64,000 nucleotides of DNA, taken from the IMG/VR virus record IMGVR_UViG_3300001487_000119, positions 64,001-128,000 of that record. One strand, written 5' to 3'. The notes beneath the pieces were generated by a model. The model had not been told where the DNA came from, searched no databases, and saw only the letters and a list, made by a program, of their open reading frames with translations. The position numbers and the translations under genes were made by a program. Source of the DNA: a virus (taxonomy: Duplodnaviria; Caudoviricetes). Shown here piece by piece: positions 5,420-63,246 of the stretch (within the stretch, counting starts at the first letter, position 1; every line of letters begins with the position of its first letter).

Positions 5420-5923
5420 ATGAAAAGCGTTAGCAAAAAAGCTTTATATGAAAGCATTATGACTTCGGTTGCTAAACAAGTAAAGAAAACATTGAATGAG
5501 AATAATAATGTGAATGATAATGCAGATTAGTTGAAGGAGTTAATTGCAGAGCATGAAAGTAGGCTTAGAGTATTAAAAAGAAAGCTTGCAGTATTAGAAA
5601 GTGAAAAGGAAATAATAGATGCGTTTGCAAAAGGTATTAATGACTGGACTGATTGGCATGATTCACATTATAGCAATTATATTCGTGAAGGTGAAGAAGG
5701 AAAAGAGTTAATAGAAGCCAGTGGTGGAATATGTAATTATATATATGAAACTGGTTGTAAAGATATGTATTCGTTTATTGAAGATTGTTTAGATGATATA
5801 GATATAGATATAGATGATGATGATTTTGAATTTGATGAAGATTTTATAGAGGATTTTATTAAAGAACATGATGAAGAAATTAATGGTGTATTGGCATCAG
5901 ATTATGGATATGTCTTTGAATAA
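5420..5923 (+). CDS. Leader-A family protein with acidic cargo (1 TAG)
   Basis: MKSVSKKALYESIMTSVAKQVKKTLNE..., in frame through TAG 5528 with the 5531 ORF. Confidence 0.75.
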
Positions 5924-14009: not shown

Positions 14010-14780
14010 TTACAAATTTATTACTGGACGAATTGGAAGCCCTTTGTAACGAGCGCACTAAGCACAAAAAATTTCAGGTTTTAATTTATTAGTATTAAAA
14101 TTTAATGTCATGCCATATTGCATATTATTAATTTTAGAATTAATAACTGTATTAGTCCAATAATTTCCATTTGTAGGATATTCATTTACATCTTTTTCTC
14201 CACATTTTTTACATGCTGGAAAAAATAATTCATTACCATTTTTCCCTATAAATAACCAGCCATCTAAATAATATACATTTCTATATTTTTCAACTGGTTT
14301 ATTTATTGTATTTTTTATTAATTCATTAAACTATTCAGGTGTTGGTATGCAAAACTTTAAATTACTATTCTAATACGCAGCATCATCTTCAGATAGTAAT
14401 GTATTTAAATTATCTTTATTATTATATTTAGTTAATTCTTTTCCAAATTTATATGTTTCCCATGAATATTCTGGCTTTGTCCCTAATTCTGTTTCACCCC
14501 AAGCAAAGTAATCACCATACCAATCTAAATATGTAGTATAATAAGGATCTTTATTTAAAAACCTCCAATCACACCCAAGATTATATTTACACCAAAGAGT
14601 TCCTGAAGGAAGTCCAAGATCAACTACTTCATTCATTAAATCTAACCATTCTTTAGTTCCACCTTTATACTTAACTTTACTACTAGTTTGACCTTGAATA
14701 TCATCTTGATCTTCAAAATCATCTAAAGCAAACTTAATGCCTCTATTAACAGCTTCTAATATTTTATTATAGTTTTTCAT
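14010..14780 (-). CDS. Leader-B + VDLGLPSG lectin-like domain protein (3 TAG)
   Basis: MKNYNKILEAVNRGIKFALDDF...VDLGLPSGTLWCKYNLG...GLPIRPVINL, ends TAA. Confidence 0.8.
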
Positions 14781-16759
14781 ATATTATTAATATCTTCCTT
14801 ATTTACAACAGCTCTTATTTGTAATCCAACACATCTATCAATATCTTTAATTGACGGTTTTACATTTTTGAATATATTTAATTCATATGCCATGTATTCT
14901 TTACCTTTAATATTTTCACATGCCCAATAATAACCGCCATATTTATAGATACTTAATTTATCTTTTTCCATAATATTTGTATATGGCATAAATAATTTTT
15001 CTTTATTAATTTTACTGATAAATGTAATACCGTTTAATCCTGTAATTCCTTGATAATCCTATTCAAATTTTATTTTAGTATTTTTTAATAATTCTTCAAA
15101 TTGTGCTTTTGATGGAATACAAAAATTAAAATTAAAAGATTTAGTTAATTTTTGAACAGCTGCATCATCATCTGGTATAAGCGTATTTAATTTATCAAAT
15201 CTGACATTATATTTAGGATTATTACCATATTTAGTTAATTTATCCCATGCACCGTTTGCATACTTATAAGTTGTCCAATCATATTGTGCTTTTGGTTCCA
15301 ATTCACCCCAAGCATAATAATTACCTATCCAATCTTTAGCATTATCTAATTTATCAATATTAACACCTAAATTATATTTGTGCCATAATGTTCCTGAAGG
15401 CAATCCTAAATCAACAACTTCTTTCTTTATATCTAAATATTCTTTCCAACTACCTTTATAATGGTTTGTTTTACTGCTAGATTGACCTTGAAGTTCTTCA
15501 TCATTATCAAAATCATCTAAAGCAAAACGAACATTATTATAATTAAATGATTCATTTAAATTTACTTTATTTTGATATGGACGTAATGTTACTTGCATTA
15601 TATAACATACTGTTGGAAATAAATTTTTCCATAAATAATTTTTGGGATCTGTTTTCTTTTTAAGATCAAATACGACAGGATCATTATTATTTAAAATAAA
15701 ATTAATATATAATTTCTTATTTTCAGCAAAATTAACTGTAAAATAAAAACCAAAATCAGTTTTTTCTAATCCAGTAATTTCAATAGTATCAACTAATGCA
15801 TCTTTTAATAATAATGTTCTTGTAATATTTTTATAAATTAATTTTTCATATTCTTTATTAAAATAGTCAAGTGCAAGATCAATACGTTTTTCTCTTGGCA
15901 CCGGTAAACGTCCAAGTGAATCTGTTTCTTCTCGGAAATATGTATATGGTATCATTAAAAAATGTAAATTCTAAATATATGTATTATATTCATTAATTTG
16001 TTCATTATATTCATCTATTTCATTTTCCGGATGATTGTTTATTTCTGCATAATTACGATTATCTTGCAAATCATCAACTAATTTTTGATAATGCTACTGT
16101 AATTTATAAAATTCTATATATTTTTTATTACTTTCACCTGTATTATATTTGTCATAACAATCATTTATAAAATCAACTAAATATTGTTCAAGATCCATTT
16201 TTATTTCATAGGTATCTTCTAATAACTTATTTTCAATTCCAATTTTATTATTTTCTTTGCTTTGTAATGAATTAGAATTTAAACTGTATTTTAATTCATA
16301 ATATTTTTTAACAGATTGATAACGTTCTAATAATGTTTTATCATTAGAAGACAAATCCAAACAATCTCTTGATTTAATATTAATTGTTGCCGCATTTTGT
16401 TTAATATATTGTGTAAATGTAGAACGTGTCTGAATTGTATTTTCTAAATATTCTAATAGATATTTAATAAAATTTTTAGGTTCATACATTAAAAATGATT
16501 CAAGATCCTGATACTTCTATGCACCATTTATCATTCCATAAAAATCATGAATATCATTTTGAGTATATTTAGTTTTATTATTTCTTAAATATTGAAGATA
16601 ACTATATATTTTTTTAATAATATTTTCAGATTTACCGCATTTTTCTTTTGGTAAACCATATTTTAAACCTACTTCTAATTTTTCTGATTTAGAAGGAACC
16701 TAATCTTTGATATGTAATAAATCTTGTCTAACTTCAAATTCTGAAATTTTATTTTCCAT
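14777..16759 (-). CDS. 660 aa protein: unknown N-terminus plus internal leader-B/VDLGLPSG module (5 TAG)
   Basis: ORFs 16094-16489, 15059-15955 and 14777-14989 share one frame and are separated only by TAG. Confidence 0.75.
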
Positions 16760-16869
16760 AATTTTATATATACATTTCTATTCAATATATTTATTAAAAC
16801 AAATGACTCTAGAAAAATCTAGAGTCATTCTTAAAAGAAGAATTTACTTATAATAATTACTCATCATAA

Positions 16870-29157: not shown

Positions 29158-29817
29158 ATGAAAAGAGATAATAAAAAAGCTTTATATGAAAGCATTATGA
29201 CTTCGGTGGCTAAAGAAGTTAAAAAGGTATTGAATGAATACAAAGGATCTGGCATAGTAGGTTCATTTAATAAAAATACAAATGGTGTAGTTGATCTTGG
29301 TTTACCTTCTGGAACATTATGGTGTAAATGTAATCTTGGAGCAAATACCGAAACTGAATATGGAGATTATTATTCATGGGGTGAATTAATTACCAAGTCC
29401 GAATATACTGAGGAAAATTATATGCATGATGATAATTTTAAACAACTTCCACCTGAATATGATGTAGCAACATAGACATTAGGTAAAAATTATTCAATAC
29501 CAACTAGAGAATAGTGTATTGAATTACTTGAATATACAAATAATGAATGGGTTCATGATTATAATAAATCTGGTGTAGATGGTTAGTTGTTTATTAGTAA
29601 AATAAATGGTAATAAATTGTTTATTCCTGCTGCAGGTGTTCGTATGAGATATAGCATTTATTATGATAATGATTGTTGTTATGTTTGGTCATCAAGTCTT
29701 GATACAGCTTACCCAGATGGTGCATGGTACATGTACTTTAATTATGACAAATATGTTCGCATAAACAGTAGCAGTCGTTACCACGGTCTTTCAGTTCGCC
29801 CAGTTTTTAAAAAATAA
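29158..29817 (+). CDS. Leader-A + VDLGLPSG lectin-like domain protein (3 TAG)
   Basis: Leader A, VDLGLPSGTLWCKCNLGA, IPTRE(Q), FIPAAG, WSSSL...GLSVRPV. Confidence 0.82.
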
Positions 29818-29952
29818 ATATATTGAAATATATATAACTTATTATAAATCAATCAATTAAGCAAAATTTTAATAATTTTGCTTAATTTTTTTGTAATAAA
29901 TAATAAAATAGTGAAAAACTATAACAAAAATATAAAAATAAATTAAAAATTT

Positions 29953-37489: not shown

Positions 37490-38173
37490 ATGAAAAACTA
37501 TAATAAAATATTAGAAGCCGTTAATCGCGGTATTAAATTTGCTTTAGATGACTTTGATAATGAAGAACCTCAAGGACAAGTTAATACTAAAGTTAATAAT
37601 ACCAGTAATATTAAAGAATATGTAAATTGGTTAAATTTAGTTGATAAAGTTAATGAATATGATATTACTAAAGAAGATGTTGCAGAATTAATGAAACTTA
37701 GCCAATTATTAAATTTGAAATTTAAAGCAGATAATGATACATTAAAAGCAATTGTTTATTATATATGTGGAATTAATCCTCGAGCTGATTTAAATTGGAT
37801 AGATACTAGCAGTATAACAGATATGTCATTATTATTTCATTAGACTAAATTTAATGGAGATATTTCTGAATGGGATGTTTCTAATGTTAAGACAATGCTA
37901 GAAATGTTTGAATCTACACCATTCAATGGCAATATATCTAAATGGAATGTTTCTAATGTAAAAAATATGGCATGGATGTTTGCCCATTCTAATTTTAATA
38001 AACCTATAGGAAATTGGGATGTTTCTAATGTAGAAACTATAGAATATATGTTTTATGATGCTAAAAAATTTAATAAAGATATTTCTAAGTGGGATATAAA
38101 CACATACGATACTGATTATATGTTTTCTGGATGTCCAATAAAAAAAGAATTTAAACCTGTATTTCCATGGTAA
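37490..38173 (+). CDS. Leader-B + DUF285/BspA-like repeat protein (1 TAG)
   Basis: Leader B, then ADLNWIDTSSITDMS, FNGDISEWDVSNV repeats. Confidence 0.82.
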
Positions 38174-38892
38174 AAAATTATAATAAAATATTAGAAGCAG
38201 TTAATCGTGGTATTAAATTTGCATTAGATGATTTTGAAGATCAGGATGATATTCAAGGTCAAACCAATAGTAAAGTTAAATATCAAGGCGGAATAAATGA
38301 ATATCTAGATTTAATGAAAATTGTAGTTGATTTAGGTCTTCCATCCGGTAATTTATGGTGTAAATATAATCTTGGCTGTAATTATGAAAAATTAAATAAT
38401 GACTCAGAAAATACTATACCGGATATGTGGTATGGAGATTATTATGCATGGGGACAAACAAAACCAAATAGTCTTGAAGAATATGATAAAGCATTTAGTG
38501 CAAATATATTAACACATGATATTGATCCGTCATATCAAAATATGCATTTTAAAGATTTTAAATTTTTTACACCTTCTGTTAAAGATTTCCAAGAATTATT
38601 ACAAAATACTATTCAAAAAAATGTACAAAATTATAAAATTAATTATTTAAACGGTATAGAATTAACTAGTAAAATTAATGGAAATAAATTATTTTTACCG
38701 AATAATGGTTTACATTATAGTGATGATGATATACCGGTTAAATCAATGCTTGTCGGCAGTCTTTCTTATTGTTGGACAGCAACTGCAAATAAATCAAATG
38801 CAAGCGATGCTATAGTATATGCTAAATCATTTGGTGATTAGGATAAAAGTTTTTTATGCGGTATACGACCTGTATTAAATTTAAATAGATAA
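38167..38892 (+). CDS. Leader-B + VDLGLPSG domain protein (1 TAG)
   Basis: Conserved C-terminal GIRPVLN lies after TAG 38839. Confidence 0.8.
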
Positions 38893-57943: not shown

Positions 57944-58246
57944 AATAACTGAATTAAATTATATTAAATTTGAAAATAGATAACTAATGCATTAAACCAG
58001 GATTCTGTAAATCGAAGACAACATCATTAATCAGAATGAATTTCAGATATTGAAATAAACTTCATTATTAAAATAATAAAACCACTAAACATACTTTAAA
58101 TGCTTAGTGGTTTTTGTTTGTTTATATTAAATTTAAAATAAATCTATTAACCGGAATAACTAACATTAGTTATTTTATGATAGGTTGAGAAAAAAGTTTT
58201 TTTGCAGTGAAAATAAATATATTGATAACAAAAAATATATAGAATA

Positions 58247-58951
58247 ATGAAAAGAGATAATAAAAAAGCTTTATATGAAAGCATTATGACTTCTATAGCT
58301 AAAGAAGTTAAAAAAGCATTAAATGAATATGATAGTTGGACTACTACAACATTGGATGTGATAACATAGGATGAAGAACAATCTGATGCTGATTTTGTAG
58401 ATTTGGGACTATCAGTTAAGTGGGCTAAGTATAATTTAGGTGCAACACCAGGTAAAAATGCTAAAGATTGGTATGGTGATTTTTATGCATGGGGTGAAAC
58501 TGAACCAAAATTAGATTATAAAATGAATAATTATAAATTAAACAATTATAATGACAAATATCATTAGGGTAAAAAGATGGTTCTTGATCCTAATGATGAT
58601 GCTGCGACTGTTAATTATGGCAAACCTTGGAGAATGCCAACAAAAGAAGAAATAAGAGAATTATTAAAACATACTACTAATCGTTGGGTTACTAATTATA
58701 AAGGAATTAAAGGATTAAATGGCCGATTATTTATTAGTAAAATAAACGGTAATTCAATTTTTATTCCTGCGGCTGGTTATTGTGAAGGTTCTGATATTAA
58801 TGATGTTGGTTCTTATTGCTACCTATGGTCTTCAAGTCTTAATTTAGACTACACATATGATGCATACTACTTTGACTTTAATTCAGACCATATTATTGCG
58901 TTAAGCTGCAATCGTTGCGATGGTTTTTCAGTTCGTCCTGTCATGGCTTAA
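58247..58951 (+). CDS. Leader-A + VDLGL lectin-like domain protein (2 TAG)
   Basis: MKRDNKKALYESIMTSIAKEVKKALNE...FVDLGLSVKWAKYNLGA...WRMPT...GFSVRPVMA. Confidence 0.82.
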
Positions 58952-58980
58952 GGATTTACTACTCACTGAAAATAAGAAAT

Positions 58981-59030
58981 AAAAATGGTGAAACTGCTGG
59001 TTCAAACCCGTATAAAGTTTCACCATTTTT
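58981..59030. terminator. 15-bp stem hairpin with 20-nt loop
   Basis: aaaaatggtgaaact / agtttcaccattttt. Confidence 0.6.
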
Positions 59031-59095
59031 CTATTTAATAACTAATAAACAATATCATAAAACCGTTATATAATAATAAAATAATAAAGGCTTTA

Positions 59096-60718: not shown

Positions 60719-60749
60719 AAAGAGATTCAAATTTGAATCTCTTTATTTT

Positions 60750-61556
60750 TTATAATTTTATTACCGGACGAATTGGTAATCCGCATAACCTACTTTCAGC
60801 AATATATTGCCAATAACCTTTATATATAGTTAAAATTTCTAATTCATTATTATCACCATCCCATGTAGAAATTGGACCTGATATCCAATATTCAATATGG
60901 CCATCAGCTAAAGCTGGTTTAGAACCAAAACTAGTATGTCCGCTAGCAGGTAAAAATAATGTATTCCCATTAATTTTACTAATTAATAATGCGCCATACA
61001 GCTAATTAATATTATTGTATTTTCGTTTATATTTAACTGTTGTATATTTTTTTAATTCTTCAAACTATTGCATAGTTGGCATATAAAATTTAAAGTTATG
61101 TAAATGCATATTTTGGTAAGCAGCATCATCTTCTGGCAGCAAATAATCTAAATTATCTATATTTGATTTATCATATTTTGTTTTTACATTAAATGCATAT
61201 TTTGTTAACTAATAAATTCTACCAAATTTATAATTATCCCAATTATATTCCGGTTTATTTGCTTCAATCTCACCCCATGCATAATAATCACCACGCCAAT
61301 CTTCTGAATTAGACTATTCTGGATGATTATTTAATAATTCATAATCACATCCTAAATTGTATTTGCACCACAGAGTTCCAGATGGTAGTCCAAGATCAAC
61401 TACGTTATTCATTAAATCTAAATACTCTTTAGTTCCATCTTGATGATTAACTTTGCTATTAGACTGCCCTTGAATATCTTCTTGATCTTCATAGTCATCT
61501 AATGCAAATTTAATTCCTCTATTAACAGCTTCTAATATTTTATTATAATTTTTCAT
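60750..61556 (-). CDS. Leader-B + VDLGLPSG domain protein (4 TAG)
   Basis: Read-through to GLPIRPVIKL, ends TAA. Confidence 0.8.
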
Positions 61557-61563
61557 AATTAAT

Positions 61564-62367
61564 TTATAAATTTATTACCGGGCGAATATTAAACCCGTTA
61601 GCACGACTGACAATATTATCGCCATATCTATTGGAATTGAAAAAACAATAGTAAGCCCAGCGAGCATCAGATAAGAAAAGACTCGAAGACCACAATAAAC
61701 AAGCAGAACCAACATTTCCACATGAATCACCGGCTGCCGGGATAAACAACTAATTTCCGTTTTTCTTTCCTTCAAAAACTCTGCCGTTCAATCCTTGAAT
61801 TCCGCTATCATCTTCATGATTATGTATAGTTTTATTAGGATCATAATTATTAACCCAATAGTTTTTAGTGCAATTTCCTAATTCTTCAAACTATTCTTTA
61901 GTCGGAATATGAAATTTAAAATTATATAATTTTTTATTCTAGTAAGCTGCATCATCTTCTGGTAATAATTCAGATAAATTATCAGTAAAACCATTTAAAC
62001 CAACATCAGGAACATTACAATATTTAGTTAAAGATCCATCAAAATAATCATTTCCAAATTTATAATTATCCCAATTATATTCCGGTTTATTTCCTTCTAA
62101 TTCACCCCATGCATAGTATTTTCCATACCAGTCTTCTGGATTAGTTAACTGGTTTGGATTAACATCTAAGTTATACTTGCACCATAAGGTTCCTGAAGGA
62201 AGATCCAAATCTACCACTTCTTTCATTAAATCTAAATATTCATTCATTCCACCCTAATATTTAACTTTGCTGTTAACTTGACCTTGAAGTTCATTATCTT
62301 CAAAATCATCCAATGCAAATTTAATTCCTCTATTAATAGCTTCTAATATTTTATTATAATTTTTCAT
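61564..62367 (-). CDS. Leader-B + VDLGLPSG domain protein (4 TAG)
   Basis: KVKY(Q)GG matches KVKYQGG of the paralog at 38167; ends GFNIRPVINL. Confidence 0.82.
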
Positions 62368-62376
62368 TTAATTAAT

Positions 62377-63246
62377 TTATAAATTTATTACTGGGCGAAT
62401 ATTATAACCAGTACAACGATAATTAGTGTAAATATCGAAATTGTCTGAATAGAAGCATAAAGAGTAAGCATGGTTGGGACATTCTAAATAAAGAGTTGAA
62501 GACCATAAGTAAATATAATAATCAACATTATTAACACTATCGCCAATATAATAACCAGCTGCAGGAATAAATAACTAATTTCCATTCTTTCCTTCAAATA
62601 TTCTGCCATTCAAACCTTTAATTCCACCATCATTTTTTGGATTATGAATAGTTTTATTTGGATTATAATTTTTAACCTAATAATTACTTGTATATTTTAT
62701 TAGTTCTTCACACTATTCTTTAGTCGGTATACGGAATTTAAAATTATGGCATTTTTTAAATTGATAAGCAGCATCATCTTCTGGAAGAAGTTCAGTTAAA
62801 TTATCTGCAAATTGTGTATATGGATAATTTTCATTATTGTCTATTCTTTTAACTCCATCTTCTTTTTTACTACAATATTTAGTCATTTTTTCTAAATATG
62901 GACGTTTACCAGAATATTTATAATTAGCCCAACCGAAATAACTTTTACCATCTTTGTTTGTTTTATTTCCTTCTAATTCACCCCAAGCATAATATTTACC
63001 ATACCAGTTTTTAGCTTTAGTTAATTGATTAGAATTAACATCAAGATTATATTTACACCATAAAGTTCCAGAAGGAAGCCCCAAATCAACGACTTCTTCC
63101 ATTAAATCCAACCATTCTTTGGTTCCATATTGATAATTAACTTTACTATTAGTTTGACCTTGAAGTTCATCTTGATTATCAAAGTCATCTAAAGCAAACT
63201 TAATACCTCTATTGACAGCTTCTAATATTTGTTTATAATTCTTCAT
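62377..63246 (-). CDS. Leader-B + VDLGLPSG domain protein (3 TAG)
   Basis: Read-through to FIPAAG...WSSTL...GYNIRPVINL. Confidence 0.82.

Follow-up and report, generated by a model that had tools for sequence, protein, structure and literature searches.

Probable stranded DGR-type variable regions in a lectin-fold paralogue family of a TAG-recoded huge phage

Six lectin-fold genes of a huge gut phage end in C-terminal tips that are probably stranded DGR-type variable regions, kept as a hard-wired repertoire of paralogues. The first-pass annotation of this DNA had taken four of these genes for remote or relic DGR targets. The descent that this implied is upheld by homology to a bacterial target that still has its template and RT. 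The notion of live remote targets is not supported: the phage record yielded neither RT nor Avd nor template, the tips are stable between samples, and copies differ at positions beyond the reach of adenine mutagenesis. That the lectin-fold proteins form a repertoire of binding-type proteins was also proposed at that stage, and is supported here.

The DNA analysed is a 64-kb window corresponding to bases 64001-128000 of the 204,228-bp virus record IMGVR_UViG_3300001487_000119 (G000), for which CheckV estimates a completeness of ∼41%. The GC content of the phage record is 23-32% (about 27% overall), and its gene products include a family-B DNA polymerase, a tail sheath, a gp32-like protein, a RecA-like protein and a helicase. 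This gene content identifies G000 as a fragment of a very large tailed (huge gut) phage. Translated with table 11 the region appears as short ORFs broken at in-frame TAG, and reading TAG as a residue closes the frames into whole genes with 2-4 in-frame TAGs each; Q, the residue used for TAG in the analysis, is an assumption. TAG is a sense codon in most long genes of the window (1-64000). No tRNA genes were found within the 64-kb window, so the recoding is not linked here to a suppressor tRNA.

A profile built from five copies in the window detected 16 full-length paralogues in the 204-kb record, of which eight lie within the window and one is the C-terminal domain of a 683-aa protein. In each member an N-terminal helix of 27-30 residues, which comes in two types, is joined by a disordered linker to a domain with the C-type-lectin fold. 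Six members, four in the window and two outside, carry 8-10 NNC codons per 39-46 codons in the stretch that runs from a W codon to the V of a terminal RPV, and are called NNC-type below. P0001 (58247..58951, forward strand) encodes 234 aa with two in-frame TAGs, and its variable-region equivalent occupies 58826..58942 on the same strand (39 codons, 10 NNC). P0002 (29158..29817, forward strand, 219 aa) carries the same type of leader as P0001 (type 1) and has its variable-region equivalent at 29686-29805 (forward strand, 40 codons, 10 NNC). The adjacent P0004 (61564..62367, reverse strand, 267 aa) and P0005 (62377..63246, reverse strand, 289 aa) both carry a type 2 leader, with variable-region equivalents at 61576-61692 and 62389-62505 on the reverse strand, each with 9/39 NNC codons. 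The two NNC-type paralogues beyond the window lie at genome positions 61302-62141 and 164487-165320 and have 10/39 and 8/46 NNC among the two. The other ten paralogues have only 1-4 NNC codons in the same stretch. Those in the window are P0003 (60750..61556, reverse strand, 268 aa, 1/42 NNC), which served as an internal control, a 256-aa paralogue at 14010..14780 (reverse strand, 3/46), the C-terminal part of the 683-aa protein at 14777..16828 (reverse strand, 2/40) and a 241-aa paralogue at 38167..38892 (forward strand, 2/34).

A single-sequence search gave no relatives of P0001, and an alignment of the family was needed to find them. The wider family is very large, with 7821 proteins at E ≤ 1e-3 among 8000 scored; many of its members carry PF07603, and both matches with a named source come from MAGs of the order Bacteroidales. 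A tblastn search with P0004 against the GenBank phage collection returned no match.

DNA alignment and regular-expression searches bore out the shared N-terminal leaders noticed earlier, for which the proposed virion-targeting role is putative. The first type is 27 residues long (MK[RK]DNKKALYESIMTS..KEVKK.LNE) and precedes bodies that are mutually unrelated; in P0001 it spans 58247..58330 on the forward strand (MKRDNKKALYES...) and is predicted to form a helix. Across 12 other loci its first ∼81 bases are 83-95% identical at the DNA level, and the regular expression finds nine genes. Gene starts with this leader are at window positions 5420, 6051, 8757, 26050, 27982, 28695, 29158, 34780 (reverse strand) and 58247, and beyond the window at genome positions 7291 and 189902 (reverse strand). 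The AF2 model shows a helix followed by a disordered linker, an arrangement that we take to resemble the capsid-targeting or docking leaders of large myoviruses. The second type (MKNY[NK].ILEA[VI]NRGIKFALDD, then ..QGQ.NSKV) occurs in about 20 genes that form tandem clusters, one at 60750-63246 in the window (reverse strand) and others at genome 60-64, 78-80, 100-103, 148-151, 164-165 and 199 kb. It too is found on non-lectin bodies, for example at genome 62155-63369 and 63366-64301.

The lectin domain of P0001 was modelled by AF2 with a pLDDT of 89.7. The best VIA-align matches of the model were the Lcl C-domain of Legionella (Z 8.2, rmsd 5.2, 109 residues aligned) and Bd2740-C (Z 7.9), followed by Mtd (7.4), an FGE paralogue (7.3), TvpA (7.1) and TaqVP (6.4). 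Among the other top-50 entries the great majority were FGE-type or C-type-lectin-like; taken one by one the Z values are middling, but the list hardly varies in fold. Foldseek found nothing in the PDB below E 0.001 (best E 0.083). PF07603 (Lcl_C) matched P0001 with 27.1 bits (E 5.4e-6) and P0002 with 17.9 bits, both under the 34.9-bit cut-off, and did not match the remaining three of the five window copies. The model and its structural matches give the family a predicted C-type-lectin fold, of the Lcl_C/DUF1566 (CLec2) kind.

The 3' ends of the NNC-type genes share the scaffold previously described for four of them (tgg tct tca agt ctt ... gct/gca ... ttY ... cgt ... ggt ... Rtt cgY ccN gtN), and the NNC excess reported for those four is confirmed as far beyond chance (10/39, 10/40, 9/39 and 9/39 between W and RPV). 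When the six tips are pooled, 56 of 242 codons are NNC (third-position C 0.231, versus 0.054 in the rest of the same genes); genome-wide, NNC codons make up 6.5%. Third-position G is not raised in the tips (0.074 versus 0.093 in the rest of the genes), and the effect is therefore no general rise in GC. The ratio of TAC to TAT is 15:15 in the six tips, 5:100 in the rest of the genes and 265:2920 genome-wide. Relatives in other virus records that share the scaffold have the excess as well (L015 10/39, L005 11/39, L010 10/39, L013 10/41 and L008 8/39).

P0001 is also followed by a hairpin, which had been listed as a feature common to DGR targets. The inverted repeat at 58972..59039 on the forward strand (arms 58972-58995 and 59016-59039) begins ∼20 nt past the stop codon and has a 20-nt loop, a terminator-like T run after it and an MFE of -20.8 kcal/mol (z -2.95). 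The hairpin is thus present but not specific to DGRs; it is best read as an ordinary terminator, because counterparts follow unrelated genes (60719-60744, 58078-58114 and 29855-29887).

A search for homologues gave 348 relatives, and 78 bacterial loci encoding such proteins were examined for repeats with adenine-biased mismatches. A contig from a Bacteroidaceae MAG (L209) holds a template/variable pair of 185 bp in which 18/18 mismatches fall at template adenines. Besides the target, whose Lcl_C score of 37.4 bits exceeds the cut-off, the locus carries a bAvd-like protein, a template and an RT (RVT_1, E 1.6e-15) within 1.5 kb, and it has a second target of BACON-Lcl_C architecture. P0001 is 43% identical to the L209 target over 189 aa (E 2e-33), in an alignment that reaches RPV, and the two tips are colinear over 39 codons. 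A second true template was found beside an RT on contig L216 of MAG G013, which has a family variable region on another contig, L173; here 29/43 mismatches are at template adenines. Both templates comprise exactly 39 codons from W to V, the same as the phage copies. In L209 a caspase-domain protein (Peptidase_C14) is encoded directly after the RT (L209:10513-11460). A locus of the class 'YW..NAYNLNFNS..NNNNR..GFSVRPV' was also seen in a huge virus (L230; record G034, 242 kb, GC 0.40); because this record holds both RT and template, huge phages with a same-class DGR exist.

The two true templates allowed the phage tips to be read column by column. Twenty-four of the 39 tip columns are variable in the phage copies (five or more residues), and these include all 12 AAY columns of the L209 template (P = 7e-4) and all 14 of the L216 template (P = 1e-4). 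Lys, Glu, Gln, Met and Trp are the five residues that AAC cannot yield. At the 15 template-AAY columns they fill 11 of 210 cells in 14 phage variable regions, whereas the proteome figure is 22.8% (binomial P = 3e-12). Codons at these columns end in C in 69 cells, in T in 117, in A in 14 and in G in 10 (89% C/T). Third bases differ between tip columns (heterogeneity P = 0.001): columns 14 and 15 mostly end in C, while columns 19 and 22 never do, with T in 14/14 and 11/14. This is compatible with the decay of a template in which some columns had AAC and others AAT. In 40 homologous bacterial regions, mean third-position C (C3) is 0.44 versus 0.30 in the rest of the gene, and third-position G is 0.23 in both. 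The best reading of the codon pattern thus remains the one first given to it, an imprint of DGR adenine mutagenesis, as the tips are colinear codon for codon with targets that have a template and RT. Homology, fold and codon imprint all place the phage genes in the DGR-target homology class (CLec2 / DUF1566-Lcl_C). The pattern does not date the activity of a DGR, however, as a start rich in NNY stays rich in NNY under point mutation and selection.

We looked for the machinery that would write such tips. No RT or template had been visible in the window, and this holds for the whole 204,228-bp record: a PF00078 search gave no match in G000 (204 kb, ∼41% complete), nor in 29 other family-bearing virus records (5 + 5 + 19), and detected all three of three virus records known to hold an RT. 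The records searched include five large relatives of 111-380 kb, the 380-kb one rated 76% complete, and a second set of five of which one is rated 90% complete; none is a complete megaphage genome. The L209 RT protein found nothing in G000 by protein search and only an E of 7.5 by tblastn (the L209 control was positive), and the bAvd-like protein, a single query and so a weak test, found nothing better than E 1.7 by tblastn. A template was sought in several ways. Blastn at word size 7 returned only paralogous coding copies in G000 (67-74% identity), with no template. A scan for adenine-biased repeats, which recovered L209, found no pair at any variable region of G000 or of 35 phage loci. The proposed RT and template matching 58800-58945 were sought in the whole phage record, and neither was found. 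One A/T-biased repeat in G000 (148944-149053 versus 125874-125983) was rejected as a template; its two copies lie in the middle of two paralogues and outside any variable region, with 7/10 mismatches at T, and it is not meaningful in DNA of 73% A+T. In IMG/VR, the exact scaffold 15-mer, a narrow pattern, hit 97 stretches, five of them family variable regions and the rest chance matches, with no template among them. A degenerate template motif, also narrow, hit 44 stretches (GC 0.32-0.59), 36 with an adjoining RT and none from the 27%-GC clade, and a narrow phage-style template pattern produced one unrelated match only in metagenome contigs.

The most serious alternative to stranded variable regions is that RT, Avd and one or more AT-rich templates in the unsampled ∼59% of the genome still rewrite the tips. 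We consider this unlikely, although it draws strength from the incompleteness of G000, from the vigour of the codon imprint, from MAG G013 with its RT and template on one contig and variable region on another, and from the 242-kb phage G034 with its RT and template of the class. Set against these are the 30 family-bearing virus records without an RT and the distances in G000. In phage-associated DGRs, as surveyed by Wu et al. 2018 (PMC5758913), almost every target is found no further than 50 kb from the RT. Five of the six NNC-type variable regions have at least 50 kb of RT-free record on both sides; for the sixth, at genome 164 kb, one flank amounts to ∼39 kb. The differences among the tips also speak against a common template. 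Pairs of variable regions differ about equally at the three codon positions (means 16.9, 14.0 and 18.5), with many C/T changes at the third, and the six copies in G000 differ in scaffold codons such as ttc/ttt and cgc/cgt. Adenine (A-to-N) mutagenesis cannot make C/T third-position differences. One template could therefore not have yielded the six tips.

The tips are, moreover, unchanged or nearly so across samples. Two samples gave L005 and L006, which are set apart by 80 columns in 3.6 kb; the 717-bp orthologue of P0001 contains none of them. A contig from another sample (X2) covers the 61564 variable region with two other letters, and one from another study (X3) covers that of 62377 with two other letters and two gaps. 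In the probable source run (X1) the 58247 variable region sits without difference inside a clean 2.1-kb contig of full depth. The runs were compared as contigs, in which rare variants are dropped, and the contigs of four runs break at the repeated leaders and conserved parts; the gap in cover at the 58247 variable region in X3 and X6 carries no weight. A second X1 contig (depth 61.9 versus about 63-67) matches 58247 at ∼89% over 58416-58538 and 58589-58783 and stops matching at 58783, which is ∼40 bases short of the W codon that opens the variable region. This contig may represent either a co-resident strain or one more paralogue, encoded in unsampled DNA of the same genome.

A larger change was found between G000 and L018, which are near-identical over 7.2 kb except for a 1.7-kb patch at genome 60.9-62.6 kb that takes in the end of one paralogue, a whole NNC-type paralogue and the start of the next gene. 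The difference is recombination and not retrohoming, because the patch covers 1.7 kb over three genes and is not the size of a variable region; it marks a hot spot in the paralogue cluster. The bounds of the patch are sharp, the divergence within it is 10-37%, and the three adjacent genes all bear leaders. The strain variation confined to template adenines that the first-pass annotation predicted was thus not seen in L005/L006, in the X2 and X3 contigs or between G000 and L018.

In a quick tree of the non-variable core, where support is modest (SH-aLRT 87-92) and half of the forks are open, 12/17 NNC-type genes form one short-branched clade, P0001 and L005 stand beside bacterial targets, and copies without NNC excess are on long branches. 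When NNC-type genes are compared in pairs, the fraction of four-fold sites that differ is 0.51, against 0.62 expected at saturation (∼80% saturated), and so a partly decayed C3 signal is allowed. By a rough estimate each lineage would keep ∼0.4 of the ancestral state, which would take C3 from a bacterial-like ∼0.5 to ∼0.25, as seen. An objection that the C3 excess is too persistent for a fossil, given saturated two-fold sites, was withdrawn, as C at 8% gives no power.

A further alternative dispenses with DGR history altogether. Loops rich in Tyr, Asp, Asn and Ser, combined with a local codon preference, would have arisen by ordinary selection, and the likeness to DGR targets would be convergent. 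In every paralogue, those poor in NNC among them, the variable loops have indeed diverged further than the remainder of the protein, and tip differences are spread about evenly over the three codon positions. We nevertheless regard convergence as quite improbable. The bias is synonymous and specific to C, extending even to the conserved Phe column of the tips (TTC 7 : TTT 4), whereas conserved two-fold columns in other parts of the genes have 21 C : 228 T. Furthermore, the enrichment in C falls on the very stretch that in true targets is homologous to the template, the homology to the proven L209 target runs through the variable region, and ten paralogues of the same fold lack the bias.

Rewriting of the tips in trans, by a DGR belonging to the host or to a co-infecting phage, or their recent copying from host genes, is very hard to credit. 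In its favour, many Bacteroidales homologues have the same 39-codon variable region and the raised C3 noted above, and 58247 ends in gtt cgt cct gtc, much like the L209 template (gtg cgt cct gtc). Against it, DNA identity between the phage variable regions and the 40 bacterial ones reaches 62% at most, the phage scaffold codons are AT-rich, phage-typical and kept among phage records, and the tips are stable between samples. Judged by this low identity and the phage-typical scaffold codons, any import of tips from bacteria would be old.

Taken together, these results lead us to favour stranded variable regions of DGR type, and the following course of events would account for them. We infer that a DGR once acted on an ancestor of the family, in the phage lineage or in a donor. 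The products would be small, secreted-type binding modules of a huge TAG-recoded phage, with a C-terminal, ligand-facing stretch of 39 codons homologous to the variable region of DGR targets; presumably they bind surface ligands. The six 'WSSSL...[IV]RPV' copies would descend from a variable region that was once DGR-written, template AAY becoming NNY. This origin would have left the excess of codons ending in C or T, the shortage of K/E/Q/M/W and the variability at exactly the template-AAY columns. The retroelement would now be uncoupled and the tips fixed, drifting by ordinary substitution with C decaying to T, and diversity would be supplied by the many paralogues and by whole-gene swaps through recombination. 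The family would then display successive stages, from a DGR-written tip to a frozen and finally a decayed one.

Several features of the family have precedents. Wu et al. 2018 (PMC5758913) set out both the AAC rule and the DUF1566 class of targets, and their account of CLec2, or category 'd', variable proteins names DUF1566 and DUF823 along with Fib_succ_major and gives a Legionella target as an example. As far as that account goes, the phage genes resemble CLec2 proteins in having a C-terminal variable region in a C-type-lectin fold, a weak Lcl_C/DUF1566 match, an often short, single-domain build, an AAC-derived codon repertoire and an end of the form ..VR.V. (PMC5758913). They are unlike them in lacking an associated RT, Avd and template, in a Pfam score below the cut-off (27.1 versus 34.9 bits) and in forming a 16-member family with helix leaders. 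The likeness to the L209 target takes in the entire lectin domain together with the 39 codons of the tip, whereas the compact bAvd-template-RT arrangement of L209, with its adenine-only mismatches, has no equivalent in the phage. Mtd of Bordetella phage BPP-1, TvpA and TaqVP belong to the same fold class as the P0001 model, but with only 9-16% sequence identity and the middling Z scores given above they share the fold without closer kinship.

A closer parallel in outcome is provided by the cyanobacterial CLec paralogues of DGR targets, some without a nearby RT, described by Vallota-Eastman et al. 2020 (PMC7517822), whose authors suggest in their discussion of these genes that the diversifying parts are removed once a variant has been selected. 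In both cases there are families of target-like paralogues, those of the cyanobacteria with varying template/variable homology in the account given there (PMC7517822). The same account has the cyanobacterial genomes keeping a DGR elsewhere (PMC7517822); here none was seen, nor a template against which tip homology could be scored, and the carrier is a recoded huge phage. The present case adds a family of this size with a graded imprint, a calibration codon by codon with two true templates, and evidence for the replacement of cassettes between strains.

We tentatively raise a broader possibility, which we think doubtful at present, that recoded huge phages have turned DGR output into a germline repertoire through frozen duplicates, two shared leaders and whole-gene cassette exchange. 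If true, the leaders would deliver or dock the tips to a common site on the virion or host, the family would record a shift from somatic-type hypermutation to a multigene library, and the older copies (those with no NNC excess, with indels and with K/E/Q) would be decayed stages. A bolder version, if true, would place an AT-rich DGR in the DNA that was not sampled and have it still serve several dispersed targets at distances above 50 kb, an unusual arrangement in phages.

Looking forward, stranded variable regions of this kind would mean that the codon imprint of a DGR is readable in genes that have lost it, and that the imprint can be calibrated with the true templates of homologues, so that former targets may be recognised in fragmentary viral genomes. 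The same case carries a warning, in that a variable-region-like sequence alone is insufficient to call a DGR. For the phage itself, at least 16 lectin-type proteins become candidates for host or glycan recognition, and the findings suggest that the breadth of this repertoire comes from paralogy and recombination and not from ongoing hypermutation.
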